Source: an uncultured Acidimicrobiaceae bacterium (GTDB lineage Bacteria; Actinomycetota; Acidimicrobiia; Acidimicrobiales; RAAP-2). From it: DNA of 64,000 bases. Positions 3,891 to 44,551 of this stretch are shown one piece after another. Made by a program: the position numbers and the translations under genes. The DNA lies in NCBI GenBank assembly GCA_963750075.1, contig CAVVPG010000002.1, positions 453,272 to 517,271 of the forward strand, in the 5' to 3' direction. A model generated the notes under the pieces. It saw only the letters and a program-made list of their open reading frames with translations, was not told where the DNA came from and searched no databases. Numbering within the stretch: position 1 is the first letter of the stretch; every line of letters begins with the position of its first letter.

Positions 3891-3896
3891 TCGCCG

Positions 3897-19498: not shown

Positions 19499-19572
19499 GC
19501 GCTCGTAGCTCAACGGACTAGAGCATCTGACTACGGATCAGAAGGTTGGGGGTTCGAATCCCTCCGAGCGCG
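19499..19572 (+). tRNA. tRNA-Arg, anticodon ACG
   Basis: Folded by hand. Acceptor gcgctcg/cgagcgc (7 bp), D stem gctc/gagc, anticodon stem tctga/tcaga with loop ctACGga, 5-nt variable loop, T stem ggggg/ccctc with loop ttcgaat, discriminator g. 74 nt; CCA is not encoded. Confidence 0.9.
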
Positions 19573-19602
19573 CGACTGTGACCTCCAGCGCGCGACATCA
19601 CC

Positions 19603-21032
19603 GGTTCTTCGGAATCTGGCGGGGTCTGCCTGCTCACCGGACGACGATCGAGCCCAGGACGCGCCAGTTCGGTTTGCCGGCGTAGAGCAGGGCTCTGATC
19701 CGGTAGTTCTCGAAGTTGCGGAAGCCGAAGGCGATGCGCTTGATGCGCTTGATCAGGTTGTTGAGGGCCTCGGTCGGACCGTTGGAGACCCTGGCGATGT
19801 GGAAGTTGGCGATCTTGTCGAACCAGTTTTTGATCGTGCGCCCGAGCTTTTGGATCTCCGGCGGCATGGCGCGTCGGAGACAGTGACCCTGGAGCTCAAC
19901 GAGGAGCGCTCGGGCTTCATCGAGATCGCGGGTGCGATAGAAGTCACGCAGGCGCTCTTTGATCCGATAGGCGATGGCCACCTCGGCACCGGGGTCGCCG
20001 AGGGAGAGGAGTGACCACAGGCGCTCGGTCGCTCCTGCATCGAGCTTCTCCTCGCCGGTGAGCAGGACCCGGCGGGCTCGATAGAGCGGGTCGTCTCTGC
20101 GGCCCCGGTGCCCGAGCTGCTCGGTCTGGACCCGACGACGGACGGCGTCGAGGCAGCGGTTGGCCAAGGAGATGACATGGAAGGGGTCGACCACCTGGGC
20201 CGCGGTGGGCAACATGACCGAGTACACCGCCGCATAGGTGGCCGACATGTCGAGGGCACCGAAGCGGATCCGCTCCTTCCATGCCGCCGGCTGCTTGTCG
20301 ATCCAGCCCGCCACGTCGGCGTAGTTGCGAGTCGGGAGGATGTCGATGATCTGGTGGTTTTCCACATCGGCCACCGTGGTGGCGTAGCTGGTGTGGATCC
20401 GCGGCACCGAGTTTGACGAAGGAGGTCTCGTCGAGCCCGATGGCCGTGGTCTTGTTCAAGCGCTTGCGGTCGGCCGCGAGCAGGGCCTCGCCATAGGTGA
20501 TCACGGCGTCATTGACCGTGTGCCAATCGCAGGCGAGCTCGCCGGCCACCTCGGCCACGGTCCGGCCTCCGCCGACTTGGACCGTCGCCCACTTGGCCGC
20601 TCTGGTCGTCAGCAGGCACTTCTTGGCCGCAATGCGGTGGTCGCTGAGGATCCAGGTCTTCTTGGCGCAGCGCTCGTTCACACAGCGCATCCGGTGCTTC
20701 TTCCAGGCCAGTGACATGGGCGTCCCATAGACGGGCAAGTCGACGTAATGGACCACCGGACGTTCCTTCACCCGGGCCTCCACAGCACACGATGGGCAGC
20801 GCACTCGATCCCTGATCAGCTGCTCGATGGCCAGCTCGACGTGGGGCCCGCGTCGCTCGTAGTGCAGGACCACCACGTCTTTGAGGCCGACGAGAGCCTC
20901 GAGGATCTCGCTATGGTCGCGAAGAACGAAGGTGCTTCTTGGTTGTTGGGTCACACCTCAAGCTTGAAGCACCTTCGTCGCGCTCGAGGTGATCCTGGTC
21001 AGGGGCGCGACCCCGCCAGGATCCGATGAGCC
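19603..21032 (-). mobile_element. ISL3 family insertion sequence (1430 bp) with terminal inverted repeats and an 8-bp target-site duplication
   Basis: IRL ggttcttcggaatctggcggggtc (19603-19626) versus the reverse complement of 21009-21032, ggctcatcggatcctggcggggtc: 20 of 24 identical. Flanked by exact direct repeats acatcacc at 19595-19602 and 21033-21040. Carries an ISL3-type transposase. Confidence 0.85.
19634..20954 (-). CDS. ISL3 family transposase; frame interrupted near 20400-20410
   Basis: ORF 19944..20954 gives the N-terminal zinc-finger/HTH part (RCPSCAVEARVKERP...GLDETSFVK). ORF 19634..20407 gives the DDE part (HTSYATTVADVENHQIIDILPTRN...ALDMSATYAAV...SNGPTEALNNLIKRIKRIAFGFRNFENYR). 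Span is 1321 nt (3n+1). Confidence 0.85.
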
Positions 21033-21165
21033 ACATCACCTCCGAGCGCGCCAAAGATGCGGTTGACCCCTTTGGGCGGATCGCTGAACGCAGGCGTGCA
21101 GGGCCATCCCCGGCGCACGCGACAGATGCAGCTGCCAGCTTCGAGCCGACTGCGACCCGTATCAC

Positions 21166-22011
21166 GTGCATAGTTGGGGAATGGTGGACGACCACAGCGT
21201 CACGCCGGCCCCCGTCGGGTCTGCCCGCGATCCCTCGTTCCTCCGTACAGTTCGACCCGTCCTGGAGCGCTACGCGTCCTACTTCCGGCCAGAGGTGCGG
21301 GGGTTTGAGCACTTGCCCCGACGCGGACCCTTCCTTGTGGTCGGGAACCATTCTGGTGGCCAGACACCCCCGGATCTACCGGTCCTGCTGACGGCGTGGT
21401 GGCGTGAGCGAGGCGAAGACGAGCCGGTCTACGCACTCTTCCACTCGTTCTTCCTTGGTCTTCCGGGGGTAGGCCCCGTCATGAAGCGTGCCGGTGCCGT
21501 CGAAGCCGGGCCGGCCGCGGCGGAGGCGATTCTTCGCAGCGGAGCGATCCTGATCGACTACCCGGGTGGTGACTCAGAGGTCTTCCGCCCTTGGTGGGAG
21601 CGAAACCGCATCGAGTTCGGCGGTCACGTCGGGGTGGTGCGTCTGGCATTGCGAACGAGGGTCCCTGTGGTCCCCGCCGTCTCCGTCGGCGCCCACGAGG
21701 CGCTCGTCGTCCTCGCCCGAGGTGAGCGCGTCGCAAAGTGGCTCAGGCTCGATCGCATGTTCCGTATCAAAGTGATGCCCCTGGTGTTGGGCCCCCCTTT
21801 TGGTGTCGTCCCCGGGGGCATTCCCACGTTCCCGCTTCCTGCGAAGATCACCGTGGAACTCGGCCCTCCGATTGACTGGTCGTCGCGGTATGCGCCGGAC
21901 GCGGCTGACGACGAAATGATCGTTCGAGACTGCTACCGGGAGCTCACCGAGACGATGCAGACGACGCTCGATCGATTGGCAGCCGAACGCCGCTTTCCGA
22001 TTCTCGGTTAG
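21166..22011 (+). CDS. Lysophospholipid/glycerolipid acyltransferase (LPLAT superfamily)
   Basis: FLVVGNHSGGQTPPD (acyltransferase block I variant), YPGGDSE and VPVVPAVSVG blocks. 281 aa; the start may be the internal MVDDHS. Confidence 0.7.
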   Translation: MHSWGMVDDHSVTPAPVGSARDPSFLRTVRPVLERYASYFRPEVRGFEHLPRRGPFLVVGNHSGGQTPPDLPVLLTAWWRERGEDEPVYALFHSFFLGLPGVGPVMKRAGAVEAGPAAAEAILRSGAILIDYPGGDSEVFRPWWERNRIEFGGHVGVVRLALRTRVPVVPAVSVGAHEALVVLARGERVAKWLRLDRMFRIKVMPLVLGPPFGVVPGGIPTFPLPAKITVELGPPIDWSSRYAPDAADDEMIVRDCYRELTETMQTTLDRLAAERRFPILG

Positions 22012-22020
22012 GCGGTCTCT

Positions 22021-23638
22021 TCACCTCTCGTCCCGGTCTCGTAACGCCGCTACGGCAACCGCTTGAGCCCAGGGATAGTCCGCCTTTCCGCTGGGCGAAC
22101 GAACGATGTGATCGACGACGAGTATCTCTCGAGGCACCTTGAAGCCGCTCAGCCTGGCATGGACGCGCTGGCGGACAGCCTCCGGATCGATCTCGTGCCC
22201 GGCCCGGGCCAGTACCAGCGCGACGACACGCTCACCGAACCGAGGGTCGGGCGCTCCGACGACGACGGCGTCGCAGACGGCGGGGTCGTCCTTCAGCGCG
22301 GCTTCCACCTCGTCGGGGAAGACCTTTTCCCCGCCCGTGTTGATGCAGAGCGAACCTCGCCCGAGGACAACGATGCTCCCGTCGGCGTTCACCGTCGCCA
22401 GGTCACCGGGCAGCGCCCAGCGTTGGCCCCGTGCCTCAACGAAAGTGGTCGCGGACTTGGGCGGATCGCCCAGGTAGCCGATCGGGACGTGGCCGCCCCT
22501 GGCGAGATGTCCGATCACCCGGGATCCCGGGGTGACAGGCTGGAGATCGTCGTCGAGCACGTCGGTATGGTCGTCGACTCGCAGTCGTGGCGGCCCGAAC
22601 GGGTCGTCGGGAGGCATCTCACCTCCAACTTGTCCGGTCTCTGACGAGCCAAATCTGTCGGCGACGATCCGACCTGGGAGGAGCTCGGCCAACTGCGCCT
22701 TTGTTGACGGTGAAAGCACCGCTCCTCCGGATCCCACGGCCATCAGCGATGAGAGGTCGTAGCGATCGGGTTGCGCGGCGAGCGCGTCGAGCAGCGGCCG
22801 GACCATGGCGTCGCCCACCACGGCGATCGCGTTGACCTGCTCTGTCTCCACCAGACGCCAGACCTCGGATGCCTCGAAGCGGCCCCCATCGGTCGTCACA
22901 ACTGTCCCGCCACCGAACAGGGTCGAGAACGCCAACCAGTGTCCGGCCGCGTGCATGAACGGAGGTATGGCAAGTGCAGTGATGCCCGGATGCAGGAGCC
23001 GCGTGACAAGCTCGCCGGGGGCGGCGATGTGGTTGCCCGAGGAAAATGGGTCACCGCCACCCATGGCCGCGAAGAAGATGTCGTCGTGTCGCCAGAGCAC
23101 ACCCTTCGGCATGCCGGTCGTGCCGCCGGTGTAGACGCAGTAGAGGTCATCGTTGCGGCGCGGGTGGAACCCGCGGGTGTCGGGCGCCGATGCAAGGGCA
23201 CGCTCGTAGTCCTCACCCACTTTCGGGTCATGTCCCGTCGGCTCCCGCACCTGCAGCACGGCCCGGGTCTCGGGCATCGCGTGCAGGGCACCTTTCACGG
23301 TCGGGGCAAATCGTCCGTGGGCGATGAGGCCCACGAGCGCGGCATTCCCGTACAGGTACTCCAACTCGCTTCCCAGGTAGCGGTAGTTGACGTTGACCGG
23401 CACGGCACGAATCTTGAAGCACGCCAGCATGCTCTCGATGTACTCGGTGCCGTTGACCAGCTGCAGCCCCACCGTGTCACGGGACCCGACTGCCGGCGCT
23501 CTCCAGGTGGTGGGCGAGCCGGTTGGCCCGCCGGTCCAGCTCGGTGTAGCTGAGCCGTCGGGAGCCCGACACCATCGCGGTCTGACCCCCGACCCGGTCG
23601 ACCACGCTCTCGAAAAGATCGGCAAGGTTGAACTCCAC
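22021..23638 (-). CDS. Long-chain fatty acyl-CoA synthetase (FadD-like); frame interrupted near 23485-23495
   Basis: ORF 22021..23961 carries YTGGTTGMPKGVLWRH, GSSETG, GDLATVNADGSIVVLGRGSLCINTGGEKVFPDEVE. The true N-terminus (VEFNLADLFESVVDRVGGQTAMVSGSRRLSYTELDRRANRLAHHLESAG) sits in the frame of ORF 23477..25573, behind a GGGGAG ribosome-binding site and a GTG at 23638. Span is 1618 nt (3n+1). Confidence 0.8.
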
Positions 23639-23761
23639 AGTGCTCCCCGGTCCAGATTTGGGACATCCGCCCCTGCCATCGATGAGGTTGCCAGACGTAG
23701 TATCACAGTCGGTAGTCGTGCCCTCTTCGGGGCTGGGCGCCACGGCACGCAAGGAGGCCGG

Positions 23762-25102
23762 ATGGGGGAGGGTGCGCATGATCCCGCCGGCGAGCGGGTC
23801 AACCCCGCGAGCGGAGTCAAACATACCGAAAGGGTGTCCGCGAGCGCGAGGCCGGGTATCTCGGTGCCGGGGATCGATCGAGTTACCGGGCTCTTTCGGG
23901 CGGCTTCCGGCTTCTTGAACCGGCGCGCGCTCGTCCGGGCGACCCGCGCCCTGCCTCGCACGCTGCACTACCTGGGTTCGGCGTTGCTGAGCGGGGAAGT
24001 GAGCGACTCGGTGCCGGCCCCGCACCTCTCGCTCGGTCTCGCGGCGCAGGTGGCGATGGACGAGGCGCTGTTGGCCATGGCCATGACGCCCCGCCGATTC
24101 CCGATGGCCAGGGACTACGCGAGGGTGTCGAACGAGCTCGCCGAGGCCGAATCCCTGTACGCAGGAGAGGGTTGGATCGCGGAGCCCAGTTCCTATCACC
24201 GCACCCCACCGTCGCTCGTCGAATCCCAAGTGACCACGAGCCGGGGATGGGCCACAGGGATGCACTACGACAGGTGGGACTGGGACAGCGGGTTCATCCC
24301 CCATCCCGGCGAGCCGGGAGCCGACCGCTGGATGGCGTTCGAGCCGAACCGGACGGCCTCGGCCGTCGTCGTGCGCCACCCCGACGGACCCCGCCCCTGG
24401 GTGATCGCCGTGCACGGCTTCTGCATGGGGTTCCCGTTCATGGACTTTCAGGGGCTCCAGATGAACCGGCTTCACCACGAGCTGGGGATGAACGTGGCCC
24501 TCCCGGCGTTGCCCCTCCATGGGCCGCGGCGTGTCACTCTGGTGAGTGGGGAGCCGTTCCTCTCCTTCGAGCTGATGAACGCAGTGCACGGCCTGACGCA
24601 GGCCGTGTGGGACATCCGGCGCCTCATCACTCGCATCCGTCAGCAGGGAGCCACCTCCATCAGCCTGTACGGCGTCTCGCTGGGCGCGTACGCAGTGTCC
24701 CTCCTCGCTGGTCTGGAAGAGGGAGTCGATGGCGTCGTGGCGGGCATCCCGGTATCGGATTTCCCAGGTTTGTTCCACCGACACAGTCCCCACGACATCC
24801 GCGCCCGATCGATCGAGCACAAGATCATGGGTGGCCCCGCGGAGAGCGTCTACCGCGTGGTGTCGCCTCTCTCCTTCGAGGCCAAGGTGCCCAGGCACGG
24901 CCGGTTCATCTTCGCCGGCTACGGTGACCGGCTCGCCCTTCCGGATCAGGCCCAACGTCTCTGGGAGCACTGGGAGCAGCCTCGCATCTCGTGGTATTCG
25001 GGGGGCCACGTGGGCTACCTGTGGTCCAAACAGGTCACCGACTTTCTCATCAGTTCGCTGCGTCACGTCTCGACCAGCCGTTCCCCCGAGTTCCAAGGCT
25101 GA
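23762..25102 (+). CDS. Alpha/beta hydrolase (putative lipase/esterase)
   Basis: C-terminal part of ORF 23387..25102. Nucleophile elbow YGVSLGAY, PWVIAVHGFCMG and a C-terminal GGHVGY. The start at ATG 23762 is tentative; it is divergent from fadD. Confidence 0.7.
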   Translation: MGEGAHDPAGERVNPASGVKHTERVSASARPGISVPGIDRVTGLFRAASGFLNRRALVRATRALPRTLHYLGSALLSGEVSDSVPAPHLSLGLAAQVAMDEALLAMAMTPRRFPMARDYARVSNELAEAESLYAGEGWIAEPSSYHRTPPSLVESQVTTSRGWATGMHYDRWDWDSGFIPHPGEPGADRWMAFEPNRTASAVVVRHPDGPRPWVIAVHGFCMGFPFMDFQGLQMNRLHHELGMNVALPALPLHGPRRVTLVSGEPFLSFELMNAVHGLTQAVWDIRRLITRIRQQGATSISLYGVSLGAYAVSLLAGLEEGVDGVVAGIPVSDFPGLFHRHSPHDIRARSIEHKIMGGPAESVYRVVSPLSFEAKVPRHGRFIFAGYGDRLALPDQAQRLWEHWEQPRISWYSGGHVGYLWSKQVTDFLISSLRHVSTSRSPEFQG

Positions 25103-25105
25103 CGC

Positions 25106-26521
25106 ATGGAGACGATGACCGGGCTGGACGCAAAGTTCCTCTATTCCGAGACACCGACGGCCCACATGCACACGGTGAAGGTCGTGGTGGCCGATGTTTC
25201 TGCCCTGAAGGGTGGATTCTCCTTCGACGCCCTGACCGGGATCCTCGCGGACCAGCTTTGCCGGCTCCCGCCGTTCCGCCGTCGGGTCGTGCCGGTCCCG
25301 TGGGGACTGGGTCATCCCGTGTGGGTGGAGGACCCCCAGTTCGACCTGAAGCGTCACATCCGCCGCCGGACGCTTGCCGGCCCGGCAGGCGATCGCGAGC
25401 TCGCCTCGGTGGTGGCAGAGTTCGCAGCCACCCCACTGGCGCGCGATCGGCCGCTTTGGGAATTGGTGGTCGTGGAGGGGCTCGACGGCGGCCGCATCGC
25501 GGTCGTGGCGAAGATCCACCACGCGGTGGCCGACGGGTCCGCCGTCGTGGCCCTGCTGCAGAACGTGGTGCAAGGCGCCGGCGTCGAGCCGTCAAGGGAA
25601 CCCGATGTGGATGCATGGCGTCCAGAGCCGCTCCCAACACGCCGCGAGCTGCTGAGGATGGCGGCGCACGACCATGTCCTCCGGTGGAAAGGCCTGCCGC
25701 GGTTTGTGGTGCAATCGGCGCGAAGGGGCCGAGCGTCGGAAGCGCGGCGTCGCAGCTTCGCGATCAAGCCGCCTCTTCCACTTCACCACATACCCAAGAC
25801 GTCGTTCAACGTGTCGCTCACCTCAGAGCGCACGTTTGCAATGACCAAGCTCCCACTCGAGGATCTCAAGTCCATCCGGCGCAGCGCGGGAACGACGCTC
25901 AACGATGTCTATCTGTGTGTGTGCGCGGGGGCGTTGCGACGCTACCTGTTGGAGCGCGGTGAACTGCCCGCACGCCCCCTCGTCGCCAGTGTCCCGGTCT
26001 CGACCGACCCGAATGTGGCCCGCATGTCTGGCAACCGAGTCGACAACCTCTATGTGGGCATCGGGACCGACATCGCCGACCCAGTGCGGCGCCTTGGGCA
26101 CATCCGAAGCATGACGGCAGCCTCCAAGGAAGTTCGCGCCGTGCTCGGCCACGATCTCTTTGCGCAGCGCGCCGATTTTGTACCGCCCCAGATCTACCAT
26201 TCGGCCGTGCGGCTCTGGACCCGGTCCCATGTTGCGGACCGGGTCCACCCACCCCTCAACGTGGTGCTGTCCAACGTCGCCGGACCGCGGGAGCGGATCT
26301 TCTTCGGTCCCATTGAGCTGGAAGCTCTCTACTCGGTGGGTCCCATTCTCGAAGGGATCGGCCTCAACATCACTGCCTGGAGCTACGAGCAAACGCTGGG
26401 TGTCTCCCTGCTTGGTTCTCCGGTCAGCGTTCCCGACCCCTGGTTGATCGTCGACGCACTCCACGCTGCTCTCGACGAGCTTGGGAATGCGATCGGCACT
26501 GCAGCATTGGCGGACCGCTGA
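25106..26521 (+). CDS. Wax ester synthase / diacylglycerol acyltransferase (WS/DGAT)
   Basis: Active-site motif HHAVADG (KIHHAVADGSAVVALL), N-terminal LDAKFLYSETPTAHMH, and a length of 471 aa, typical of the family. Confidence 0.9.
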   Translation: METMTGLDAKFLYSETPTAHMHTVKVVVADVSALKGGFSFDALTGILADQLCRLPPFRRRVVPVPWGLGHPVWVEDPQFDLKRHIRRRTLAGPAGDRELASVVAEFAATPLARDRPLWELVVVEGLDGGRIAVVAKIHHAVADGSAVVALLQNVVQGAGVEPSREPDVDAWRPEPLPTRRELLRMAAHDHVLRWKGLPRFVVQSARRGRASEARRRSFAIKPPLPLHHIPKTSFNVSLTSERTFAMTKLPLEDLKSIRRSAGTTLNDVYLCVCAGALRRYLLERGELPARPLVASVPVSTDPNVARMSGNRVDNLYVGIGTDIADPVRRLGHIRSMTAASKEVRAVLGHDLFAQRADFVPPQIYHSAVRLWTRSHVADRVHPPLNVVLSNVAGPRERIFFGPIELEALYSVGPILEGIGLNITAWSYEQTLGVSLLGSPVSVPDPWLIVDALHAALDELGNAIGTAALADR

Positions 26522-26681
26522 TCGAGCGATCGCGTCGTCCTTCCCCTCGTCTGGAAGGGCAACAGCGCGTGCGATCCGCTCCGGCCAACCGACCACAGCA
26601 ATTGCCCTCCGGTGATGCCGGTGCGTGAGCCCCCGGGGATCAGAAGTCGCATCCGGTGCAGCCGTCTGCTTGTGGGGATCT

Positions 26682-26804
26682 TGCTACTACGTTGCTACTC
26701 AAATCGGCGGACCGACTGATGATGAGTGGCACAGCATGGACGCCGGACCTGATCTCAGCTGGTCAAATGGACTCAGTTGGACGGGCTGGACGATCGGAAC
26801 CGCT
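26682..26804 (+). repeat. Element-derived arm sequence left of att core 1; homologous to 32091-32212
   Basis: Gapless alignment to 32091-32212 at about 78 percent identity by hand count. Begins with TGCTACTacgtTGCTACT and contains repeated TGGAC/GGAC motifs. Confidence 0.75.
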
Positions 26805-26847
26805 CTACGGATCAGAAGGTTGGGGGTTCGAATCCCTCCGAGCGCGC
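26805..26847 (+). repeat. att core 1: exact 43-nt copy of the tRNA-Arg 3' half
   Basis: ctacggatcagaaggttgggggttcgaatccctccgagcgcgc is identical to 19531-19573. No matching 5' acceptor or D arm lies upstream. Confidence 0.9.
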
Positions 26848-27232
26848 CGAGGACTTCTTGGCGCGAAGTCCGTCCCGATAGCCTCCGTACACGCCGTCCG
26901 AGGTATTCCTCGGGACGGGAAGTGCGATGCGCACGAAACGCCGGCTCGGTCTGACACCGCCATGTCGGGGGTTGACACCGCTCGCAGAGCACGAGTGTTG
27001 GTGATCTGGTCGGCAAGTAGGCCGAGCTCGCATCGCCCGGGTCTCCGACGAGGGTCAAGGTCATCTCCGCCGTACTCGGGGCCGTGCCGCTTCCCAAGTC
27101 AGGACGGGGCAGCTCGACCGCTTCCACGCCGAGCGGCGCGAGGGAGGAGGCGATGGGGACACCTCTCGGCCGCTACAGTCCGGCATGTCCACGACCTGAT
27201 CGTCCCGACGTGGGACGACCGAGCTGGACTCT

Positions 27233-28516: not shown

Positions 28517-28518
28517 CG

Positions 28519-29763: not shown

Positions 29764-30509
29764 CGAACCGGACCATCTTCGATTTCACCGGCGCGGCTAT
29801 CGTGGTCACAGGCGGCACGAGCGGGATTGGCCACGCGGTGGCCGGTGCCTTCGTGGATGCTGGGGCCACTGTCACCATCACGGGGAGGCGCGCATCGCCG
29901 GAGAGCTACGAGGCCGATCTCGGCCGTTTCACGTACCGCCAGGTCGAGTTGGGCGATCCGAGCTCGGTCGACGCGCTGGTGGGCTCGCTCGGCGCGCTCG
30001 ATGTCCTGGTGAACAACGCCGGAGCCAACTTCCCCGGTGGCCGAGACGAGTGGGAACCTCAGGCCTTCGCCGCCGCCCTGACGCTGAACCTCGCCGGCCC
30101 GATGCGTCTCACGATCGGCTGTCGGGACCGCCTACGGGCCAGCACGATGGACGGCGGGGCGAGCGTGATCAACATGGCGTCGATGTCGGCCTTCCGCTCC
30201 ATGCCCATCGTCCCCGGCTACGGCTCGGCCAAGGCCGGATTGGTGACGCTCACGCAGAACTTGGCGCGCCACTGGGTTGATGACGGCATCCGAGTCAACG
30301 CGGTGGCCCCCGGAGTCATCGACACCCCGATGACCGCGCCCATGAAGCAATTCAGCGAGCTCCTCGACGTCGAGCTGGCCCATACACCCATGGGACGGCT
30401 GGGCATCCCGGTCGAGGTCGCCCCTGCGGTGCAGTTCCTGGCCAGCTCCGCCGCCGGCTTCATCACCGGCCATGTCCTCGTCGTCGACGGCGGCTACCTC
30501 CTACCGTGA
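29760..30509 (+). CDS. Short-chain dehydrogenase/reductase (SDR)
   Basis: Last 249 aa of ORF 29076..30509, from MTNRTIFDF. Contains TGGTSGIGHA, NNAG, the YGSAKAG catalytic Y-x3-K, and PGVIDTPM. ATGA overlap with the upstream stop. Confidence 0.9.
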   Translation: MTNRTIFDFTGAAIVVTGGTSGIGHAVAGAFVDAGATVTITGRRASPESYEADLGRFTYRQVELGDPSSVDALVGSLGALDVLVNNAGANFPGGRDEWEPQAFAAALTLNLAGPMRLTIGCRDRLRASTMDGGASVINMASMSAFRSMPIVPGYGSAKAGLVTLTQNLARHWVDDGIRVNAVAPGVIDTPMTAPMKQFSELLDVELAHTPMGRLGIPVEVAPAVQFLASSAAGFITGHVLVVDGGYLLP

Positions 30510-30976
30510 GCCTTCGAGCGCTGTCGCCGCACTACCACGTCGGGATCGTCGTCCCAGATCTCGCCGCCGCACAGGTTGAGCTGAGTGATCAGCTCGGTAT
30601 TACCTGGGGTGCGGTTCTTCGCCTCGATGCTGTCGAGTACCGCGACGGGTCCGGTGACGACATCACGCTGCCAACCTCGATGTGCTACTCGGTCGAGAAC
30701 CCGCACATCGAGCTCATTGAGGAGGTTCCCGGGTCCATCTGGGTGTGCAACGAGGATTCGAACCTGCATCACATCGGCTTCTGGTCCGACGATCTACCGC
30801 ACGAGAGCACCCGTCTAGCCAGCTCTGGTTGCCCCCTCCAGCTGTGTGGCCGCGCCGGCACACAGACCCCGGTCTCGTTCGCTTACCACCGGAACGACCT
30901 CGGCATCCGCATAGAGGTCGTCGACGCCGCCATGCGCGAGGCCATGGCGTTCTTGTTCCAACCCGACGAGAGCTGA
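30506..30976 (+). CDS. VOC (glyoxalase/bleomycin resistance/dioxygenase) family protein
   Basis: HYHVGIVVPDLAAA...HIELIEE...LHHIGFWSDDL pattern. GTG start overlaps the SDR stop by 4 nt. Confidence 0.7.
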   Translation: MSLRALSPHYHVGIVVPDLAAAQVELSDQLGITWGAVLRLDAVEYRDGSGDDITLPTSMCYSVENPHIELIEEVPGSIWVCNEDSNLHHIGFWSDDLPHESTRLASSGCPLQLCGRAGTQTPVSFAYHRNDLGIRIEVVDAAMREAMAFLFQPDES

Positions 30977-30988
30977 GCCAGGTTCCAG

Positions 30989-32026
30989 GTGTTGCAGGTG
31001 CGAGTCCATGGGCCGGCTGACGTTCGGGTCGACGAGGTCCCCGAACCCGACCCCGGACGGCGCGATGTCGTCGTCCGGGTGGTTGCCTGCGGCGTCTGTG
31101 GCAGCGACCTCTCCTACATCGCCATGGGTGGCCTGGCCGGGCCGGGCAGCGCCCCCATGTGCCTTGGCCACGAGATGGCGGGCGTCGTCGACTGGGTCGG
31201 ACCTGACGTGGCATCTGTGCGCGTCGGGGACCGGGTCGTCGTCAAACCCGGCGACGACGAGATCGGCCGGATCGGTAACGGAGCACCGGAAGGCGGACTC
31301 ACCCCCCTTTTGCTCGTCACGGAGGCCGACCGGGATCGGCTCCATCAGGTTCCGGCCGAACTACCTCTCGACGTGGCCGCCTTCGCAGAGCCCCTCGCCG
31401 TCGGCATGCACGCTGCTGATCAGGCCGAGGTCAGGATCGGCGAGGGTGTCGCGGTGTTCGGTTGTGGCCCGATAGGGCTTGCTGCCGTCGCTGCCCTGGT
31501 TGACCGTGGCCACGAACGGGTCGTCGCTATCGACCTCAGTCCGACCCGACGGGAACTCGCCCTCGGACTCGGCGCAGAGGCCGCGCTCGACCCGGCGACG
31601 ACGGACGTATGGGACGAACTCAAGTGCCTGCACGGGACGCGGTCCGGCATGTTCGGCACGACCACATCCACCGCGGCCTTCATCGAGGCTTCCGGGTCGC
31701 CCCGGGTCATCACCGACGTTTTGAACCGCGGCCCCGTTGGGGGTCGGCTCGCGGTCGTCGCACTCCACTACGCGCCGATCCCGACCAACTACCTCACGCT
31801 GCTGATGAAGCAGTTCACCATCCGCGGATCGATGGAGTACCCGCCCCGATTCAGTGATGCCATCGATCTGCTCGTTCGCCGCGACCTTGCTGGGCTCATC
31901 ACGCATCGCTTCCCGCTCCAGCAATTCGGTGATGCCGTCGCCGTACTTGAGGGTTCGAGGGATTGCGGCAAGGTGCTGGTAACCATGGACGCCGGGCATG
32001 AACGCACCGTCCCCATCGATCTCTGA
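30989..32026 (+). CDS. Zinc-dependent medium-chain alcohol dehydrogenase
   Basis: VVACGVCGSDLSY, CLGHEMAGVV, the GDRVVV structural zinc region and the GCGPIGLAAVA Rossmann motif. Confidence 0.85.
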   Translation: MLQVRVHGPADVRVDEVPEPDPGRRDVVVRVVACGVCGSDLSYIAMGGLAGPGSAPMCLGHEMAGVVDWVGPDVASVRVGDRVVVKPGDDEIGRIGNGAPEGGLTPLLLVTEADRDRLHQVPAELPLDVAAFAEPLAVGMHAADQAEVRIGEGVAVFGCGPIGLAAVAALVDRGHERVVAIDLSPTRRELALGLGAEAALDPATTDVWDELKCLHGTRSGMFGTTTSTAAFIEASGSPRVITDVLNRGPVGGRLAVVALHYAPIPTNYLTLLMKQFTIRGSMEYPPRFSDAIDLLVRRDLAGLITHRFPLQQFGDAVAVLEGSRDCGKVLVTMDAGHERTVPIDL

Positions 32027-32090
32027 TATCAGAACTTCCCACCGACACCGCAGGCGCAGTTTCTCCTGGAGCCAATCCAGTCTTCTCCCC

Positions 32091-32212
32091 TGCTACTACG
32101 TTGCTACTCAAGTCGGTGGACTGAAGGATCCTGCGTGCCACGAGCTGGACGCTGGACTCGATTTGAACTGGCCAAATGGACCCATCCGCATGCCGTGGAC
32201 GATCGGAACCGG
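32091..32212 (+). repeat. Element-derived arm sequence left of att core 2; homologous to 26682-26804
   Basis: Same TGCTACTacgtTGCTACT start, the same GGAC motif positions, and ctggacgatcggaacc abutting the core. Confidence 0.75.
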
Positions 32213-32254
32213 TACGGATCAGAAGGTTGGGGGTTCGAATCCCTCCGAGCGCGC
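32213..32254 (+). repeat. att core 2: exact 42-nt copy of the tRNA-Arg 3' half
   Basis: tacggatcagaaggttgggggttcgaatccctccgagcgcgc is identical to 19532-19573. Confidence 0.9.
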
Positions 32255-32319
32255 TCCGTGCGTAGGCCCAGCGTAGCGATGATAAGGCGCTGCGGTCGCG
32301 GAGCAGGGATCCGCGCCCT

Positions 32320-32339
32320 GTCCCTACATTCGTCCCTAC
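32320..32339 (+). promoter_or_regulatory. Direct repeat GTCCCTAC-attc-GTCCCTAC immediately upstream of the integrase start; candidate arm-type site or int operator
   Basis: Two exact 8-mers with a 12-nt period, 11 nt before the ATG at 32350. GTCC is the complement of the GGAC motif repeated in the left arms. Confidence 0.3.
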
Positions 32340-32349
32340 TTTTGCGCGC

Positions 32350-33539
32350 ATGGCGTGGGGGACAGGCACCATGCGCGAGCGCAGTCCTGGGGTGTGGGAG
32401 ATCCGCATCGCCGTCGGAGTCGATCCCGTCTCAGGGCGAACGGTCCAACGCTCCTTCTCCTTCCACGGCTGCGCCGAAGAGGCCGAGCTTCACCGCAAGG
32501 AACTCGCCGCCGAGTGGGCCGAGCGTCGTGCTATCCGGGGGGCCGCGCCGTTCCTGACCGTCGGCGAGCTGGTCGAGCGTTGGCTCAGTGCGCACCATGA
32601 CTGGCGGCCGGCCACGTGGATCTCGGCCCGCTCCAACGCCAAGGCCCTCCGAGCCGACGGCTTGGCCGCGCGCCGGGTCTCCACGCTCAAGCCCGAGCAC
32701 GTGCGAGCGGCCATGACGGCATGGAGTGGTGCCGGCGCCTCGGTGGCGGTCGTCTCTGGGCGCTTCCGTGTCCTGCGCTCGGCGATCGGGTGGGCGCATG
32801 TGGAGCGCATCATCGACGTCAATCCGCTCAGCGGCATGCGGGGACCCCAGCGGCCCGGCACGCGGCTGCATCTAAATGCCGAAGAAGTGCTCCGCGTGCT
32901 CGAGGCCGCCGACGCCCTGGTCGCCGCCAGTGCGGGTGCGACGCCGAGGGCTTGCACAAGGCCCAACAGATCCGCCTGCTGGCCCGCCTCGCGGCGTACT
33001 CGGGGGCGCGGCGTGGCGAATTGGTGGCGCTGCGTTTCGACGACCTCGAGGGGCGGGTGCTCACCATCGAGCGTGGCGTCTCGGCCGACGTGCTCGGGCC
33101 TACCAAGACCGGGCGCGCCCGGAGGCTCACCCTCGGCCGGCGGACGTCCGAACTGTGGCGGTCGAGCGCCGAGCTGTGGGCGGGGAGGCTACCTGACGGC
33201 GCCGCTCTCGGTCCCTGGCTCTTCTCCCCCGAGACCACGCACCACGTCCGACTCAGCGCCGGCGCCCTCGGGCACTGGTTCGCCGGGCTCGCCCGAGCCG
33301 CCGACGTCCACGGGGCCACGCTGCACCGTCTGCGTCACACAGTGGCCACCTTCCTCGTCGGGCGTGGTGAGCTGCTGCGGGCCCAGCAGCGCCTCGGCCA
33401 CCGGGACGCCTCAACCACCCTGCGCAACTACGCCCATGCCATGCCGCTCGAAGACGGGTCGGTAGCCGACGACATCGACCAGATGCTGGGGACGCCGGCT
33501 CAGAGCTCGGAGCGGGATCGTTCGACGGACACGTCGTGA
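32350..33539 (+). CDS. Tyrosine recombinase / phage-type integrase; frame interrupted near 32925-32945
   Basis: ORF 32350..33465 gives the N-terminal SAM-like part (MRERSPGVWEIRIAVGVDPVSGRTVQRSF...TVGELVERWL). ORF 32616..33539 gives the catalytic domain (AYSGARRGELVALRFDDL, HRLRHTVATFL, LGHRDASTTLRNYAH, with the R, HxxR, H and Y residues). Span is 1190 nt (3n+2). Confidence 0.85.
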
Positions 33540-33672
33540 TTCGGCAAGTCCTTCCTATGCGTTCGGAGCGGCGGCGCGACCCCTGCCACATACCGACCGC
33601 ACCATGGGGATAGTCGATTGATCGCTCCGAGCCCGGCAATCTGACACGGTCAACCCATATCAACGTCCAAGG

Positions 33673-34269
33673 TCAGCCGACCCGTCCATTCAAGAAAGTC
33701 GATTGCTCGGGACGCTCGCGAGGCCGCTCGCGGGCTTGGAGCTCTTGGACGGCGGGGACGGGATCGGCGTCGGCGAAGAACCGGTCATCGCTGTAGTCAG
33801 CGGATCGGCCGGTCGAATCGAGAACCCACCAGGAGGCTTCCAGGGCGATCCCAGTGGGATCGGTGAAGTAGACGGAACGGACGGTACCGTGATCGATGAT
33901 GTCGGTGACGTCGTAGCGGGCGTTCTTCAAACGGCTCCGTAAATCGTGGAGCGCATCCTCGTCGGGAAGATTGAGTGCAAGATGGTCGAATTGCGCTGCG
34001 CGCGGGTCGGGAACGCCGGCGGCCTTGGTAAAGGGCTCGACGGCCGAGTCGAAGTACTCGAAAAATGCGACGGTGCACTGCGGTCCGAACTCGAAGAAAT
34101 AATGACGGAACTCCGAGTTGGCGAGCGTGGCCACGAGCCGGGCTCCCAAGACGCCGTGATAGAAGCGGACCGTGGCATCCATGTCGGTGGTTATGAGTGC
34201 GAGATGATTGATCCCGCGCCAATGTGGCGTTGTGGTCTGCAGGGTCTCTGGGACGACGGCGTTAGCCAT
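33673..34269 (-). CDS. VOC family protein (glyoxalase/extradiol dioxygenase fold)
   Basis: INHLALITTDMDATVRFYHGVLG...FDHLALNLPDEDAL...SVYFTDPTGIALE pattern. Confidence 0.8.
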   Translation of the reverse strand: MANAVVPETLQTTTPHWRGINHLALITTDMDATVRFYHGVLGARLVATLANSEFRHYFFEFGPQCTVAFFEYFDSAVEPFTKAAGVPDPRAAQFDHLALNLPDEDALHDLRSRLKNARYDVTDIIDHGTVRSVYFTDPTGIALEASWWVLDSTGRSADYSDDRFFADADPVPAVQELQARERPRERPEQSTFLNGRVG

Positions 34270-34281
34270 GAGAGCGTCCTT

Positions 34282-34896
34282 TCAGTGAGGATTATCTGGC
34301 AGGCGGTCTGACCGATGACGCGTCGCGCCGTGGGGAATCGGGGCAGAACGAGCCTGCAGGGCGGCGTGCTGAAGCTTTGTGATGAATTTGAGAAGTGAGC
34401 GTTGCTCACTCGAAGAAAGGGCGGCGTCCATTACGTCACGCTCTCGAGCGTGCATCGATGGGAGCAGCTCGTCGATGATGGTCTGCGCCGCCGGGGTGAT
34501 GTTGATGAGGAGCTTGCGACGGTCCTCAGGGTGTGGCCGGCGGTTTATCAGGCCTCGCTTCTCTAGGTTGTCGAGCAATGAGGTCATCGACGCTGTTGTG
34601 ATCAGGAGTCGGTCGGCGATGACGCTCGGTTCGAGGGCTTGGCCTTCCACAATGGCGAGGACCTGACGAGCACTGGGCGAGAGCTGGTATTCGTCGAGAC
34701 TCTGACGGTTGTGCAGATCCATCAGCAGGTCGGCAGTGCGATACATGTTGGCGTAGCACTCGGTCGCCAGTGCGCTGGCGCCGGGGTACTCGTCCTCGAA
34801 GTCATCACCGACTCGGATGAGGGGTTCGGCGACCGCCCTCGTCGAGGGGCGGCGATGCTCACCACCCTTCGACGTGCCTCGTTGCGACTCCGACAC
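34282..34896 (-). CDS. MarR family transcriptional regulator
   Basis: LSPSARQVLAIVEG...IADRLLITTASMTSLLDNLEKRGLINRRPHPEDRRKLLINIT is a canonical MarR winged helix. Confidence 0.85.
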   Translation of the reverse strand: MSESQRGTSKGGEHRRPSTRAVAEPLIRVGDDFEDEYPGASALATECYANMYRTADLLMDLHNRQSLDEYQLSPSARQVLAIVEGQALEPSVIADRLLITTASMTSLLDNLEKRGLINRRPHPEDRRKLLINITPAAQTIIDELLPSMHARERDVMDAALSSSEQRSLLKFITKLQHAALQARSAPIPHGATRHRSDRLPDNPH

Positions 34897-35541
34897 TCAG
34901 TGTGCCCCCTCCAACTCGGGGATGCGCCGTGTGAGCTCCGACCAGTCGTCGCCGATGGCCGCTTCAACCAGCTGTGTGGCTCCGGCGAAGGCATCCGCGG
35001 GCATCACCATCTGCCAGATGCGGGTCATGTTCTCGCGGTCGTCGTTTCCCATCAGGGGGAACATCCAAGCGACCAACTCCGGGAACCGGTCCTCGGGGAC
35101 GGTGCTGGCCATGACACCGACAGCCTGGCCCTGGTCGGGCACCGCGACGCGTTCTTTGATGAGCCGGTACAGATGAGTGTCCTCCTTGTACAGGTGAACA
35201 TCAAGGAAGTACTTGAAGGCCTTGGTGGCGCGTGCCGTCTCCAAGGGGTCGTGCACCGATACCGCCTTGTTCAACCCGTCAAAGGCCGCGTCGAGAGCCC
35301 GGTGATCCTTCTCGTAGGCCTCGGCGACCGAGGGTGCCACGGCTTCGAGGGCCGGAAAGATCGCCAACTCTTCTCCGTGCGCGTGCCACTCGAGCACCTC
35401 ATTGAAGAATCGGAAGCGCTCGACCGTGGCGGCCAGCCCGGGCTTGCCGCGAGCGGAGTCAAGTGCCGCCGCGTCGATCAGATTCATGTCTTGTCGGAAT
35501 GCATTGTGGATCGCCACAACTGCGTCGGTCGGACCTGTCAT
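34897..35541 (-). CDS. Hemerythrin (HHE cation-binding) domain protein
   Basis: IHNAFRQDM...EWHAHGEELAIFPAL...HRALD...LYKEDTHLY give a His/Glu-rich four-helix pattern. Start chosen at ATG 35541 (MTGPTD), which has GGAGG five nt upstream, rather than ATG 35553. Confidence 0.75.
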   Translation of the reverse strand: MTGPTDAVVAIHNAFRQDMNLIDAAALDSARGKPGLAATVERFRFFNEVLEWHAHGEELAIFPALEAVAPSVAEAYEKDHRALDAAFDGLNKAVSVHDPLETARATKAFKYFLDVHLYKEDTHLYRLIKERVAVPDQGQAVGVMASTVPEDRFPELVAWMFPLMGNDDRENMTRIWQMVMPADAFAGATQLVEAAIGDDWSELTRRIPELEGAH

Positions 35542-35714
35542 GACTACCTCCATTCATTAGGATCCATGTAGCTAGGATTCAAGCTATATAAACCCTAGGG
35601 AAATGTCAAGGGGTGCGTGGGTTGCGGTCTACGAGGTTTCGCTCACAAATGGCTGAGGACGGCGGTGATCGGACCGAACTGGAGGACGTAGTGGCCGAGC
35701 AATCCTTGACCGAC

Positions 35715-36863
35715 CTACCAGATCTTCGAAAGACGACGACGCCGACGCACGACGACCAACGCCCCACCTCCGACAGCAAACCCAGCCAGCGGCAGGAGCA
35801 GAACACTCGGGACCTCTGGCGTGTCGTTCGGCGGGATGACGCTCACGAATGAGGGTAGACAGAGTTGGGCAGCTCCTGTGGTGACGACCACCGAGGTGGG
35901 ATTCGGGATCGCCGAAGGTGGCGACGCCGAGAACTGGTTTCCAACCGAGATGCTGTGCGTTGCCCCCCCGGCCGTAACCGAGACGCACAGCAGATGAGCG
36001 CCACCGACGCCGTCACCGTTGATGGTCGACGGTCCGCCAACCGGGGTACCCGCCGAGTCGACGACTTGCTTGATGACCGGAGCGCAGAGTTCCACTGGAT
36101 GAAAGAGACCGCTGCCCGCCTCCTCCTCTGTCCCGAACTGGTCTTCCATTGTCACTCCGAATGGAGTCTTGGCGAACCCACCCGGCGCCACGCTTGCCAC
36201 TTGATAACACTGGAAGTGGTTGAGGTTGAGGTCGTTGGGATCGGTCCAAAGAGTTGGTGGCACCGAACCTGACGCCAGAGGGTTCGTGGCAAGAACGTTC
36301 GGGTCCTCTTTCCACGACGGAAGACACAACCGCGTCGACTTACCCAACGTCAGAGTGCCGGTACCGAACTGGTTCGTCACACTCACCTGAACGGTAGGCG
36401 CAGGAATGGTGGGGTCGGAGAAACAGTAGAGATGCGCCTGGGGGTTGTTCACGCCATAGACCGGTCCGGTCGAAGTGCCCGAAGAATCGCTGGGAGTCTT
36501 GATGACCGGGTTACAAAACTGGTTGTCCGTCGCGCTAGCGGTCGTCGTCGACGCTGACAGCGGCTGGATCATGTTGTGCGTGCCGAACTGGTCAGTGAGG
36601 TCCACCAAGGGCGGGCTGAACCCGTCGCTCTGCACCGGATGGCAGTAGAAGTGATCCAGTCCTCCGGGCTGAGTGGGTGGGTTAGGGCACCCAATGGTCG
36701 AACCAGCGAGCGGAGTGCAGTTCACAGCCGCCGACATGAGCGGCTGAGCAGCACCGGCGGGGATCGAGAACAGGCCAACCGCGAGAACGGCAACGGCTGA
36801 CGCCATCAAGGCGCTGGTGACGTCTAGGAGGACGCCCTTGGATAACCGACGAGGGTCGCCCAT
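35715..36863 (-). CDS. Secreted Cys-repeat protein of unknown family with a PEP-CTERM-like (or sortase-like) C-terminal sorting signal
   Basis: N-terminal signal peptide (ALMASAVAVLAVGLFSIPAGAA). Four repeat units of H-[FL]-x-C ... [DN]-Q-F-[GS] ... [LF]-C-x-P-[SV]-x-K. C-terminus TPEVPSVLLLPLAGFAVGGGALVVVRRRRRLSKIW. Confidence 0.75.
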   Translation of the reverse strand: MGDPRRLSKGVLLDVTSALMASAVAVLAVGLFSIPAGAAQPLMSAAVNCTPLAGSTIGCPNPPTQPGGLDHFYCHPVQSDGFSPPLVDLTDQFGTHNMIQPLSASTTTASATDNQFCNPVIKTPSDSSGTSTGPVYGVNNPQAHLYCFSDPTIPAPTVQVSVTNQFGTGTLTLGKSTRLCLPSWKEDPNVLATNPLASGSVPPTLWTDPNDLNLNHFQCYQVASVAPGGFAKTPFGVTMEDQFGTEEEAGSGLFHPVELCAPVIKQVVDSAGTPVGGPSTINGDGVGGAHLLCVSVTAGGATHSISVGNQFSASPPSAIPNPTSVVVTTGAAQLCLPSFVSVIPPNDTPEVPSVLLLPLAGFAVGGGALVVVRRRRRLSKIW

Positions 36864-37435
36864 AATTGAAATCCTCCATTGCCCGTAGCAGGGGGATGCT
36901 CAGTCGGCTTACGCTTTCGCAACAGTGACGTCAACGGTAATCAACTAAATCTGGTGAAAGTCACGGAGTATTCATTCATTGATCGCGGGCTGGTCATCTT
37001 TGGGTGCCCAAATGGGGCCGTTATCCACACGCCCCGTTGTGCCTCGTACGGGGATAGGGGTTCTGGACGTGAAGGCTCGGCCCCTAGCTGCATAAGGCGC
37101 AGAGCCCGTCCCCGTACTGAACCGGCACGCGGGAGCCCGCCCCCCATCGTCGCCGATGATCAAGCGGTCAACCATGGGACTCAACCCGGCTACCGAACTC
37201 GTGCAGTTCATCTCCAATCCGAGACCGCTCCCAGCGATGAACGGCCGTCTAGACCCCGCAGGGGAGAGTGGCCGAGGGTGGCGTCGATTCCGCATCAGAA
37301 AGGTGGCTTTTGGCAATCCCTTTGGCAATCTACTGAGCCAAATTTCGCAGCACCACAACACACCGGCAGGACTCGAGCCTGTCCTGAACAGGTAGTACGT
37401 CACTGGATACCACGGGATGGACCAACGGAAAATAA

Positions 37436-37477
37436 TACGGATCAGAAGGTTGGGGGTTCGAATCCCTCCGAGCGCGC
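37436..37477 (+). repeat. att core 3: exact 42-nt copy of the tRNA-Arg 3' half
   Basis: tacggatcagaaggttgggggttcgaatccctccgagcgcgc is identical to 19532-19573. It is followed by ccgag, as at core 1. Confidence 0.9.
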
Positions 37478-37578
37478 CGAGTAAGTCCAGTTCAGAGCAA
37501 GTTTCTTGCTCTTCGAGCGACCGGGCCGCCTCCTATTGCTTCTCGTTGCGGCCATTTGCCGAGATCGTTCATTCCGGG

Positions 37579-37776
37579 GCAGTGGTGGGCACCAACGGGG
37601 AATCGCCACGTCTGACAGCGACGCAAGAGTTGGGAGCATCGTCGTGCGATGCGCAAGAAGCTGTGGCGCGGTTCGTCGCCGAGGTGTCGGGAGGTGGACA
37701 CAGCGCACAGGACACAACCTTTGGTGATCTCGTCGGCGACCGGATCGAGCTCACATCCCGCGACCCGCTTCAAGGG
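37579..37776 (+). pseudogene. Probable N-terminal relic of a second tyrosine integrase
   Basis: The frame of ORF 37417..37827 reads VVGTNGESPRLTATQELGASSCDAQEAVARFVAEVSGGGHSAQDTTFGDLVGDRIE. This parallels the N-terminal arm-binding/SAM-like region of the 32350 integrase (SFSFHGCAEEAELHRKELAAEWAE...TVGELVERWL). It has no catalytic domain and abuts the convergent gene ending at 37791. Confidence 0.35.
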
Positions 37777-37790
37777 CGACGACGTGACCA

Positions 37791-39041: not shown

Positions 39042-39078
39042 AGAGCTGGCCTGCTCCTCCTCCGAGATGGACTTTGGG

Positions 39079-39640
39079 TCAGCGAACCTGGACGCTCACG
39101 TTGGTGGGGTTCGTGATGATGTCGTACACGGCCGAGCGCTTCTGCGACTGTGCGACCAGCGCCTTGATGTCGTCGGGTGACGCGTCGGCATCGATGTCGT
39201 AGGTCACCTTGATGTCGCTGAAGCCGTTGCGGACATCGCTGTCCATGCCGAGGATGCCGCGCACGTCCATCCCGCCTTCGATCGTCGCCGAAACGCTGCG
39301 CAACTGGATCTCACGGTTCTGCGCGACCGCGGCGACGCCGGCGGTCAGGCAGCTGGCGAGGGCCACGAGCACGTATTCGACAGGGGTGGCGCCGTTGTCC
39401 TCGGAGGCGAAGATCTCCGGGTGATCGGCGTCAAAGACGTACCGGGTGCGGTGGTTCTGCTCCTCGCCGAGCCCGAAGAAGCCCTCGACCGTTGAGCGGC
39501 TGTGGGTGCCGTTCTGCCACTCACAGGTTGCCCGCCATTGGAACTGCGCGGCCTGGGGCGCCTCGGTGAGCAACCCCCGGGCGCCCAAGCAGGGACTCGA
39601 CGTTGACGCCGTTGTTTACTGGTGTGTCCGTAGTGGTCAT
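39079..39640 (-). CDS. OsmC/Ohr family peroxiredoxin-like protein; frame interrupted at the homopolymer 39584-39586 (alternatively a TTG start at 39588)
   Basis: ORF 39079..39588 has GATPVEYVLVALASCLTAGV and the OsmC C-terminal pattern. Upstream, ATG 39640 with GAAGGAG seven nt before it encodes MTTTDTPVNNGVNVESLL, which joins LGARGLLTEAP if one G of a GGG run is removed. Span is 562 nt (3n+1). Confidence 0.75.
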
Positions 39641-39797
39641 GTGCTTGCTCCTTCCTCAATTGCTCTGGGGGATGTCCCCGCGGCGTTACAACACCTGCTC
39701 GAGCAGCGCGCGCCATCGCGCCCGACAATCACGGGAATTGCTCCCGGATCGGCCGATCCGGGAGGCAACATACGCGCTGCCCGGAACGCCCGTCTGC

Positions 39798-44549: not shown

Positions 44550-44551
44550 AC

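Follow-up and report, generated by a model that had tools for sequence, protein, structure and literature searches.

The DNA analysed here is a 64-kb stretch from the genome of an uncultured Acidimicrobiaceae bacterium (the window), in which partial copies of a tRNA gene separate three segments with unrelated cargo. ARAGORN detected a single tRNA gene in the window, a tRNA-Arg(ACG) at 19499-19573 on the plus strand. By pattern search, the last 43 nt of this gene, running from the anticodon loop to the 3' end (19531-19573; core 1, the attL side), were found again at three positions further downstream, all on the plus strand. Core 2 (26805-26847) is identical at 43 of 43 positions. Cores 3 and 4 (32213-32254 and 37436-37477) are identical over 42 nt; extended to 43 nt (32212-32254 and 37435-37477) they match at 42 of the 43 positions, the first base alone being different. 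The original prediction for this locus had described one exact 43-nt copy and two 42-nt copies in a single orientation, and its coordinates proved right. It had also stated that the copies lack the 5' acceptor and D arm of the tRNA. This was borne out: the DNA upstream of cores 2-4 is unrelated to the tRNA 5' half, and these cores are therefore displaced 3' halves and not tRNA genes. Analogous half-copies on metagenome contigs (see below) showed 19-26 mismatches in 33 positions when compared with the tRNA 5' half.

The core 43-mer had 0 matches in 100 dinucleotide-preserving shuffles of the sequence. The search for further cores that had been proposed with the prediction was run within the window and gave none, even with 3 mismatches allowed in the 3' 23 nt; any 14-mer of the tRNA-Arg as query likewise revealed no additional core in the window, including the part beyond 37477. 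The segments between the cores measure 7.23, 5.36 and 5.18 kb, in agreement with the approximately 7.3, 5.4 and 5.2 kb of the prediction, whose descriptions of unrelated cargo were backed by Pfam.

One short piece of a core was found within segment 1. A 13-nt exact copy of the core 3' end (CCTCCGAGCGCGC) is present at 21039-21051 on the plus strand, directly after the target duplication of an insertion sequence (IS), and is the sole exact copy apart from the four cores. Together with the next 35 nt or so it matches the core and flank of locus L098 (80% over 49 nt), and it is probably the vestige of an older, once full core junction. Cores in L099 and in L083/L096 are likewise followed by short duplicates of the core end (19583-19595 in the window is also listed). 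When up to 2 mismatches were allowed, degenerate copies of CCTCCGAGCGCGC occurred at chance level (13 observed, 13.9 expected) and were dropped as mini-cores, along with CGCTCCGAGCCCGGCAATC near 33622, close to the point where homology to locus L032 breaks off.

Arms and integrases next to the cores

Every displaced core is preceded by a homologous right arm (P arm) of approximately 125 nt. All three arms align, with 121 nt of similarity upstream of cores 2 and 3, and each holds a 7-nt sequence twice in direct orientation, at -124 and at -113 or -112 from the core. The right arm of segment 1 (26682-26804, plus strand) is B-type, with TGCTACT at 26682 and 26693 (-124/-113), and aligns with 19 other non-identical instances of the B-type arm. 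Segment 2 ends in a B-type arm as well (32091-32211, plus strand; TGCTACT at 32091 and 32102). The arm of segment 3 (37312-37435, plus strand) has the same architecture but a different repeat, GGCAATC at 37312 and 37324 (-124/-112), and is designated C-type. TGCTACT occurs five times in the window, and four of these copies form the two right-arm pairs. Approximately 30 nt upstream of the repeat pair, an ATCAGA(A/T)G box is kept in the window (around 37275-37290) and in L085, L097, L088, L095 and L092. This box resembles tRNA positions 39-46, where the core starts, and could be an extra core-type site or the remnant of an old core.

Downstream of cores 2, 3 and 4 there is in each case a left arm with an integrase gene or a relic of one. 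Core 3 is followed by an A-type left arm (32255-32349, plus strand) with GTCCCTAC at 32320 and 32332, just before the integrase start. The GTCCCTAC pair is also present in L032 and L081; L083 and L096 contain one exact copy and then a second that is one base shorter (GTCCTAC).

The integrase gene itself (32350-33539, plus strand) starts 95 nt after core 3. Based on the alignment to L032, Pfam and tblastn it is an A-type tyrosine integrase pseudogene with a 1-nt deletion: nucleotide identity to the L032 gene is 97% with one gap, a base being missing at approximately 32938, so that the N-terminal domain (frame of 32350) is out of register with the catalytic domain (frame ending at 33539). Pfam detected Phage_integrase on 32616-33539 (E = 2.5e-15) and on the frame-repaired protein of 396 aa (E = 1.7e-15), and the second frame preserves the catalytic motifs ARRGEL, HRLRHT and LGH...Y. 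Segment 3 thus retains a full-length integrase gene, as predicted, but not as one intact open reading frame (ORF). In L081 the A-type integrase is in one frame. Independent damage to A-type integrases was seen in L083 (558-1726) and L096 (1378-2603), with a frameshift at codon 164/165, and in L032 (11435-12913), where the TGA stop is changed to TGG and the ORF extended to 492 aa.

Core 4 is followed by a B-type left arm and an integrase N-terminal relic (37478-37790, plus strand). The arm begins with GAGTAAGTCCAGTTCAGAG, which also begins the DNA after the tRNA in most of the related genomes described below, and the relic is cut off at approximately 37790. Its positions 37651-37752 (34 codons) are 68% identical to residues 41-74 of the integrase of L012, which confirms the integrase relic predicted after the last core. 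A second relic, after core 2, had been missed. Here a degraded B-type left end (26848-27150, plus strand) consists of a CGAG junction identical to the junction after core 4 and an integrase N-terminal remnant with stop codons; 26922-26974 is approximately 72% identical to 37644-37696, the coding remnant of the integrase N-terminus. Segments 1 and 2 are both flanked by cores, without an integrase and with degraded left arms, segment 2 keeping an integrase stump. The left arms of segment 2 and of the region after core 4 have no arm repeats, whereas all right arms and cores are intact.

Four integrase lineages were found at this tRNA-Arg gene: A (L032), B (L012), C (L006, L011 and L074) and D (L014 and others). 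Identity is 24-44% between the lineages (43% for B and C) and 85% within lineage C. The integrases of all lineages are tyrosine recombinases, and the N-terminal Arm-DNA-bind_4 domain was detectable with Pfam in C and D. Next to the B integrase of L012 the left arm contains TGCTACT three times and once inverted; the left arms of the three C integrases contain GGCAATC three times and once inverted; those of the A integrases in the window and L032 have GTCCCTAC twice. Because the repeats beside the integrases differ by lineage, they behave as lineage-specific arm-type sites, which are presumably bound by the integrase. The window thus contains arms and integrases of no fewer than three lineages (A, B and C; 24-44% identity), each with a different arm-type repeat, which contradicts the proposal that a single element family was captured successively.

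The same locus in related genomes

With the P450 gene that flanks the tRNA (18236-19438) as query, 21 orthologous loci were obtained (78-88% protein identity), all from soil metagenome-assembled genomes (MAGs; long-read assemblies) labelled Acidimicrobiaceae or Acidimicrobiales. In 18 of these loci DNA is present downstream of the tRNA. Upstream of the tRNA the relatives are collinear with the window at approximately 75-84% nucleotide identity. The tRNA-Arg is identical in the 18 loci, and collinearity ends exactly at its 3' end: in all 18 the DNA next to the tRNA is different from that of the window, and in 13 of them an integrase gene, sometimes fragmented, follows the tRNA directly. No second core was found within 10 kb in the relatives.

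The integrase module of the window has a counterpart in L032, where the DNA abutting the tRNA is 97% identical to 32213-33613 (core 3, A-type left arm and integrase). The chromosomal flank of L032 is only approximately 80% identical to that of the window. The similarity runs to 33613, 75 nt past the stop codon of the integrase, beyond which the cargo is different. Exact-protein look-ups of window proteins, for near-identical strains with other states of the array, returned no record. The contigs of four of the 21 orthologous loci (L001, L003, L005 and L061) end within or shortly after the tRNA-Arg gene, which is consistent with strain heterogeneity or repeats at the site.

The G + C (GC) content upstream of the tRNA is 0.71, with 0.91-0.97 at third codon positions (GC3), as opposed to 0.64-0.66 (GC3 0.71-0.86) in the three segments, and it is patchy from there to the end of the window. 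No relaxase, coupling protein, type IV secretion system (T4SS), FtsK/TraB or Rep domain was detected in the window genes from 19.5 to 59.6 kb. Conjugation, replication or phage genes were found neither in the window nor in the approximately 9 kb next to the L012, L014 and L032 integrases; the elements of these three loci carry PLD-like, NERD, STAND-ATPase, GNAT and IS genes.

Arrays and mini-units in metagenomes

Metagenome contigs were scanned for two copies of TGCTACT followed, after 90-120 nt, by the core, so that loci were chosen by their B-type arm. The junction of right arm and core was found in 24 loci, representing 20 distinct sequences, with approximately 105 nt between the repeats and the core. 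In at least 12 of the 24 the junction is followed by the left arm of another element. About five junctions are followed by ordinary sequence, which is consistent with terminal attR sites. Arrays with an intact tRNA are present in L081, with one half-copy, and in L099 and L104, with two each; L090 has two half-copies. These independent arrays indicate that tandem stacking at this tRNA is recurrent in the group rather than the product of a single faulty assembly. The surroundings of the 24 B-type right arms contained no intact B-type integrase. An apparent preference of A-type elements for B-type right ends was rejected as selection bias, since the loci had been chosen by the B-type arm.

Some core-bounded units in these arrays are very small and have no integrase. 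With the arm-core junction oriented on the plus strand, such mini-units of 1.45-1.9 kb are located at 4638-6091 in L081, at 2922-4477 and 4520-6418 in L104 and at 526-2174 in L090. Their cargo is unrelated and toxin-antitoxin-like (HipA with XRE, Fic, RHH and DUF6933), with a lower GC content of 0.55-0.63. Their right arms contain intact TGCTACT pairs, and their left arms are conserved (CAGTAGCA...GACTGGGTGGAC.AAGGGCATCT).

Cargo of the segments

Segment 1 (19574-26804) starts with only 29 nt between the tRNA and an ISL3-family IS of 1430 bp on the minus strand (19603-21032). The IS was delimited by its 24-nt terminal inverted repeats (TIRs; 19603-19626 and 21009-21032), by an 8-bp target duplication (ACATCACC; 19595-19602 and 21033-21040) and by the Pfam domains DDE_Tnp_ISL3, HTH_Tnp_ISL3 and Zn_ribbon_ISL3; its transposase coding sequence lies in two different frames (19634-20407 and 19944-20954). 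The right end of the segment is B-type and its left end carries the IS. The cargo block (21166-26521, both strands, Pfam) contains no integrase and consists of an acyltransferase (21166-22011, plus strand), an AMP-binding enzyme (22021 to approximately 23600, minus strand), a hypothetical protein (approximately 23600 to 25102, plus strand) and a WS/DGAT wax-ester synthase (25106-26521, plus strand). Its GC content is 0.66, compared with 0.71 in the left flank, and no homologues of this cargo were found downstream of the tRNA in the relatives.

Segment 2 (26848-32211) carries an operon of five genes on the plus strand (27233-32026), identified with Pfam as a sulfotransferase (27233-28516), an alkylsulfatase-like metallo-beta-lactamase (MBL) protein (28519-29763), a short-chain dehydrogenase/reductase (SDR; approximately 29760 to 30509), a glyoxalase (30506-30976) and a zinc-dependent alcohol dehydrogenase (Zn-ADH; 30989-32026). 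With its B-type stump on the left and B-type arm on the right, the segment reads as a coherent B-type element of which the integrase is almost wholly deleted. The operon is 88% identical at the nucleotide level to 12916-17768 of L007, the homology beginning at approximately 27150. In L007 the genes are in the same order, without arms or cores on either side, which we attribute to an array that was once similar and has decayed further.

L007 also contains, at 11338-11801, a degenerate and internally deleted copy of the ISL3 element of the window, in the same position after the tRNA. This copy aligns with 19574-19866 and 20832-21001 of the window, and its divergence is about that of the flank, indicating that the IS insertion is older than the split of both genomes. 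As both the IS relic next to the tRNA and the segment-2 operon are common to L007 and the window, part of the arrangement predates the split from the window genome.

In segment 3 (32255-37434) the integrase is followed by a cargo block on the minus strand (33673-36863, Pfam) with a VOC/glyoxalase gene (33673-34269), a MarR regulator (34282-34896), a hemerythrin (34897-35553) and a DUF7450 repeat protein (35715-36863) whose N-terminus has a hydrophobic, signal-like stretch. P0002 in locus L105 (79%), the closest homologue of this DUF7450 protein, has that gene alone in common with the window and no att context. The GC content is 0.72 in the integrase module and 0.61 in the rest of the segment, a step of 10 points. 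The segment is probably a mosaic, in which an A-type left end is fused to cargo and a right arm of C-type. An internal deletion that removed one core would have fused the two elements. With an A-type left end, a C-type right arm and a GC step, segment 3 does not fit one capture per segment, as the original prediction had implied.

The DNA beyond the relic after core 4 (37791-46341, mixed strands, GC 0.655) was tentatively taken as a fourth element, of B-type, now without its right arm and core. Pfam identified a FAD monooxygenase, OsmC, CMD, a P450/methyltransferase region, two TetR regulators, SnoaL and a P450 (45129-46340), and no mobility genes were found with Pfam in 37478-46341. In L096 (1-1243) and L083 (9-423) a P450 that is 94% identical at the amino acid level and 89.6% at the nucleotide level to 45129-46340 is immediately followed by a B-type right arm and core, the homology to the window ending at the stop codon. 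This arrangement suggests that 37478-46341 may be a fourth element, B-type and deprived of its right end, a possibility to which we give roughly even odds. Past the P450 that ends at 46341, neither a right arm nor a core was detected in the window; a weak match to CTACGGAACAGA near 46463 was indistinguishable from chance and was rejected as a right arm. Four ORFs with a P450 domain lie within 32 kb (18236-19438, 40063-42501, 45129-46340 and 49379-50860), with five TetR-family regulators interspersed. The second of these, of 812 aa, combines a P450 domain with a methyltransferase domain in a single frame and overlaps an ORF of the CMD family, which makes the gene calls here uncertain.

Discussion

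We conclude that the locus is very probably a tandem accretion array, mostly fossil, in which small integrative elements were stacked at the tRNA-Arg(ACG) gene and whose segments resemble cis-mobilisable elements (CIMEs). Where tyrosine integrases target tRNA genes, the copy of the tRNA 3' end on the element regenerates the gene and the old half is displaced. At this locus, a circular element would have had an attP consisting of right arm, 42-43-nt tRNA copy and left arm, followed by the integrase gene. The tyrosine integrase would recombine attP with the tRNA gene or with a core that had already been displaced; the copy of the element would regenerate the tRNA and the old 3' half would stay as a direct repeat at the far end. 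The stack would have arisen as elements from no fewer than three integrase lineages used this 42-nt target repeatedly. Integrases would have been lost afterwards, and at least one deletion would have fused neighbouring elements. The original reading of the copies as att cores in tandem at one tRNA-Arg is therefore supported by the arms, the integrases and their relics, the relatives and the metagenome arrays, while its view of the segments as single captures is not. As read, the array no longer encodes a functional integrase, and the CIME-like segments could be moved only by an integrase supplied in trans.

Several observations weigh against this conclusion or parts of it. The original prediction had looked to the relatives for an unoccupied site, and none of the 21 loci provides an empty site with a conserved right flank; the downstream DNA differs in every genome, and the true right boundary of the array is undefined. 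No intact two-ended B- or C-type element was recovered, so that the lineage assignment of the right arms rests on shared repeats. The frameshift in the window integrase could be an error of the long-read assembly. A complete A-like element in L099 does not have its left-arm repeat in its right arm, which weakens the mosaic interpretation of segment 3. Finally, the operon in L007 is without arms and cores, and it could have been chromosomal before its capture; such an origin leaves the B-type stump and arm that flank it in the window unexplained.

It is scarcely credible that the cores are an assembly artefact, or a segmental duplication of the tRNA region without any site-specific integration. 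The relatives are long-read MAGs and the tRNA is where four of the orthologous contigs end, so the site is hard to assemble, but the segments between the cores are unique and mutually unrelated, all copies begin to match at one and the same position in the anticodon loop, each comes with arms and integrases, and the junctions and arrays were also found in JGI contigs from independent assemblies. Acquisition en bloc of a single composite island with internal cores, in place of successive captures in this lineage, would be less surprising and is still improbable. Composite elements from earlier accretion can transfer as a unit (PMC5704250), and the IS relic and segment-2 operon that L007 has in common with the window would agree with this. 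However, the A-type integrase module (97%, L032), the segment-2 cargo (88%, L007) and the flanks (approximately 80%) have differing histories, a 10-point GC step lies inside segment 3 and three integrase lineages are present. Transfer en bloc would, moreover, still need earlier accretion elsewhere.

Somewhat better placed, and on balance unlikely, is the explanation that the integrase-less, att-flanked units are functional cassettes, moved in trans by lineage-matched integrases, with the tRNA as an integron-like collection site. The metagenome mini-units of 1.45-1.9 kb keep conserved right and left arms around unrelated cargo, and in the window all three right arms and all cores stayed intact while the integrases decayed. 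On the other hand, the integrase-less segments of the window have degraded left arms without arm repeats and visible integrase stumps, as decay predicts. An identical unit in two different array contexts was not seen, the 24 B-type right arms have no intact B-type integrase nearby, and the conserved arms can be explained by common descent. An integron proper was rejected. Integrons have an IntI integrase, an attI site with a promoter, and promoterless single-gene cassettes bounded by attC hairpins; here the cores are tRNA-derived, 42 nt long and accompanied by arms of approximately 125 nt, and the cargo is multi-gene, on both strands and has its own regulators (MarR).

Among known systems, tandem accretion with CIMEs has been described for the ICESt1-related islands of Streptococcus thermophilus and for tandems of integrative and mobilisable elements (IMEs) and CIMEs at tRNA-Lys (PMC5704250). 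The present array resembles them in the successive use of the 3' end of a single gene as integration target, the internal att sites between elements, the decay of integration genes into att-flanked segments without an integrase, and the use of one target specificity by distantly related integrases. It differs in its uncultured Acidimicrobiaceae host, in having no functional cis-mobilising partner as read, and in the lack of conjugation or mobilisation genes in the window or in the approximately 9 kb next to the integrases of the relatives. Since transfer genes are absent from the DNA examined, the array is not assigned to the elements derived from integrative and conjugative elements (ICEs) or IMEs. 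Actinobacterial ICEs (AICEs) have a tyrosine integrase, target the 3' end of tRNA genes and carry Rep and FtsK/TraB-like transfer genes. The array shares the actinobacterial host, the tyrosine integrase and the tRNA 3'-end target, whereas no Rep or FtsK/TraB-like genes were found in the window or, over the DNA examined, in the elements of the relatives.

Islander/TIGER lists islands at tRNA and tmRNA genes, including tandem arrays (PMC4383910). Among 3919 islands Islander has 125 tandems of at least two members and 4 of at least three, and it requires an integrase and a fragment of its own for every member (PMC4383910). As in these islands, a regenerated tRNA and a direct displaced 3' fragment are located at the ends, with a tyrosine integrase next to the att site. 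The identity block of the array starts in the anticodon loop, as in the common anticodon-centred attP class (Williams 2002, as cited in PMC4383910). Unlike in the Islander tandems, only one member has a full-length integrase, and this is frameshifted, so that the array would be missed or merged. The tycheposons of Prochlorococcus are tRNA-targeting cargo elements with a partial tRNA alone between neighbours and with fragmented integrases and additional partial tRNAs dispersed over a flexible island beside the tRNA (bioRxiv 10.1101/2020.12.28.424599). Small cargo elements with tyrosine recombinases at a tRNA, partial-tRNA separators and scattered integrase fragments are common to both. In contrast to tycheposons, the array comes from another phylum and habitat and has no primase/helicase module and no genes like those of phage-inducible chromosomal islands (PICIs) that could be seen; the likeness is one of array architecture. 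No paper on such elements in Acidimicrobiia was found in the literature.

Island finders that demand one integrase per tDNA fragment miss or merge arrays of this kind. The sister integrases B and C (43% identity), with the same arm geometry and a different 7-nt repeat, may offer a system for studying arm-binding specificity or for integrase bioprospecting. In metagenomes, very small integrase-less units with toxin-antitoxin-like genes sit in the same arrays. A broader idea, which we regard as speculative and a little less likely even than functional cassettes, is that tRNA-Arg(ACG) serves as a shared landing pad, where lineages share core and arm geometry, swap 7-nt specificities and trade integrase-less units of 1.5-7 kb in trans. 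If true, this would mean tRNA-anchored, cassette-like gene shuffling in abundant soil bacteria, functionally parallel to integrons and tycheposon satellites, and shuffling without a recognisable conjugation or phage vehicle.

The array is a clear but ordinary example of a known route of gene gain and leaves the understanding of island formation unchanged. What it provides is a record, at the level of single bases, of how a flexible region in uncultured soil Acidimicrobiaceae was probably built, by repeated integration of competing lineages at one tRNA gene and subsequent loss of their integrases.

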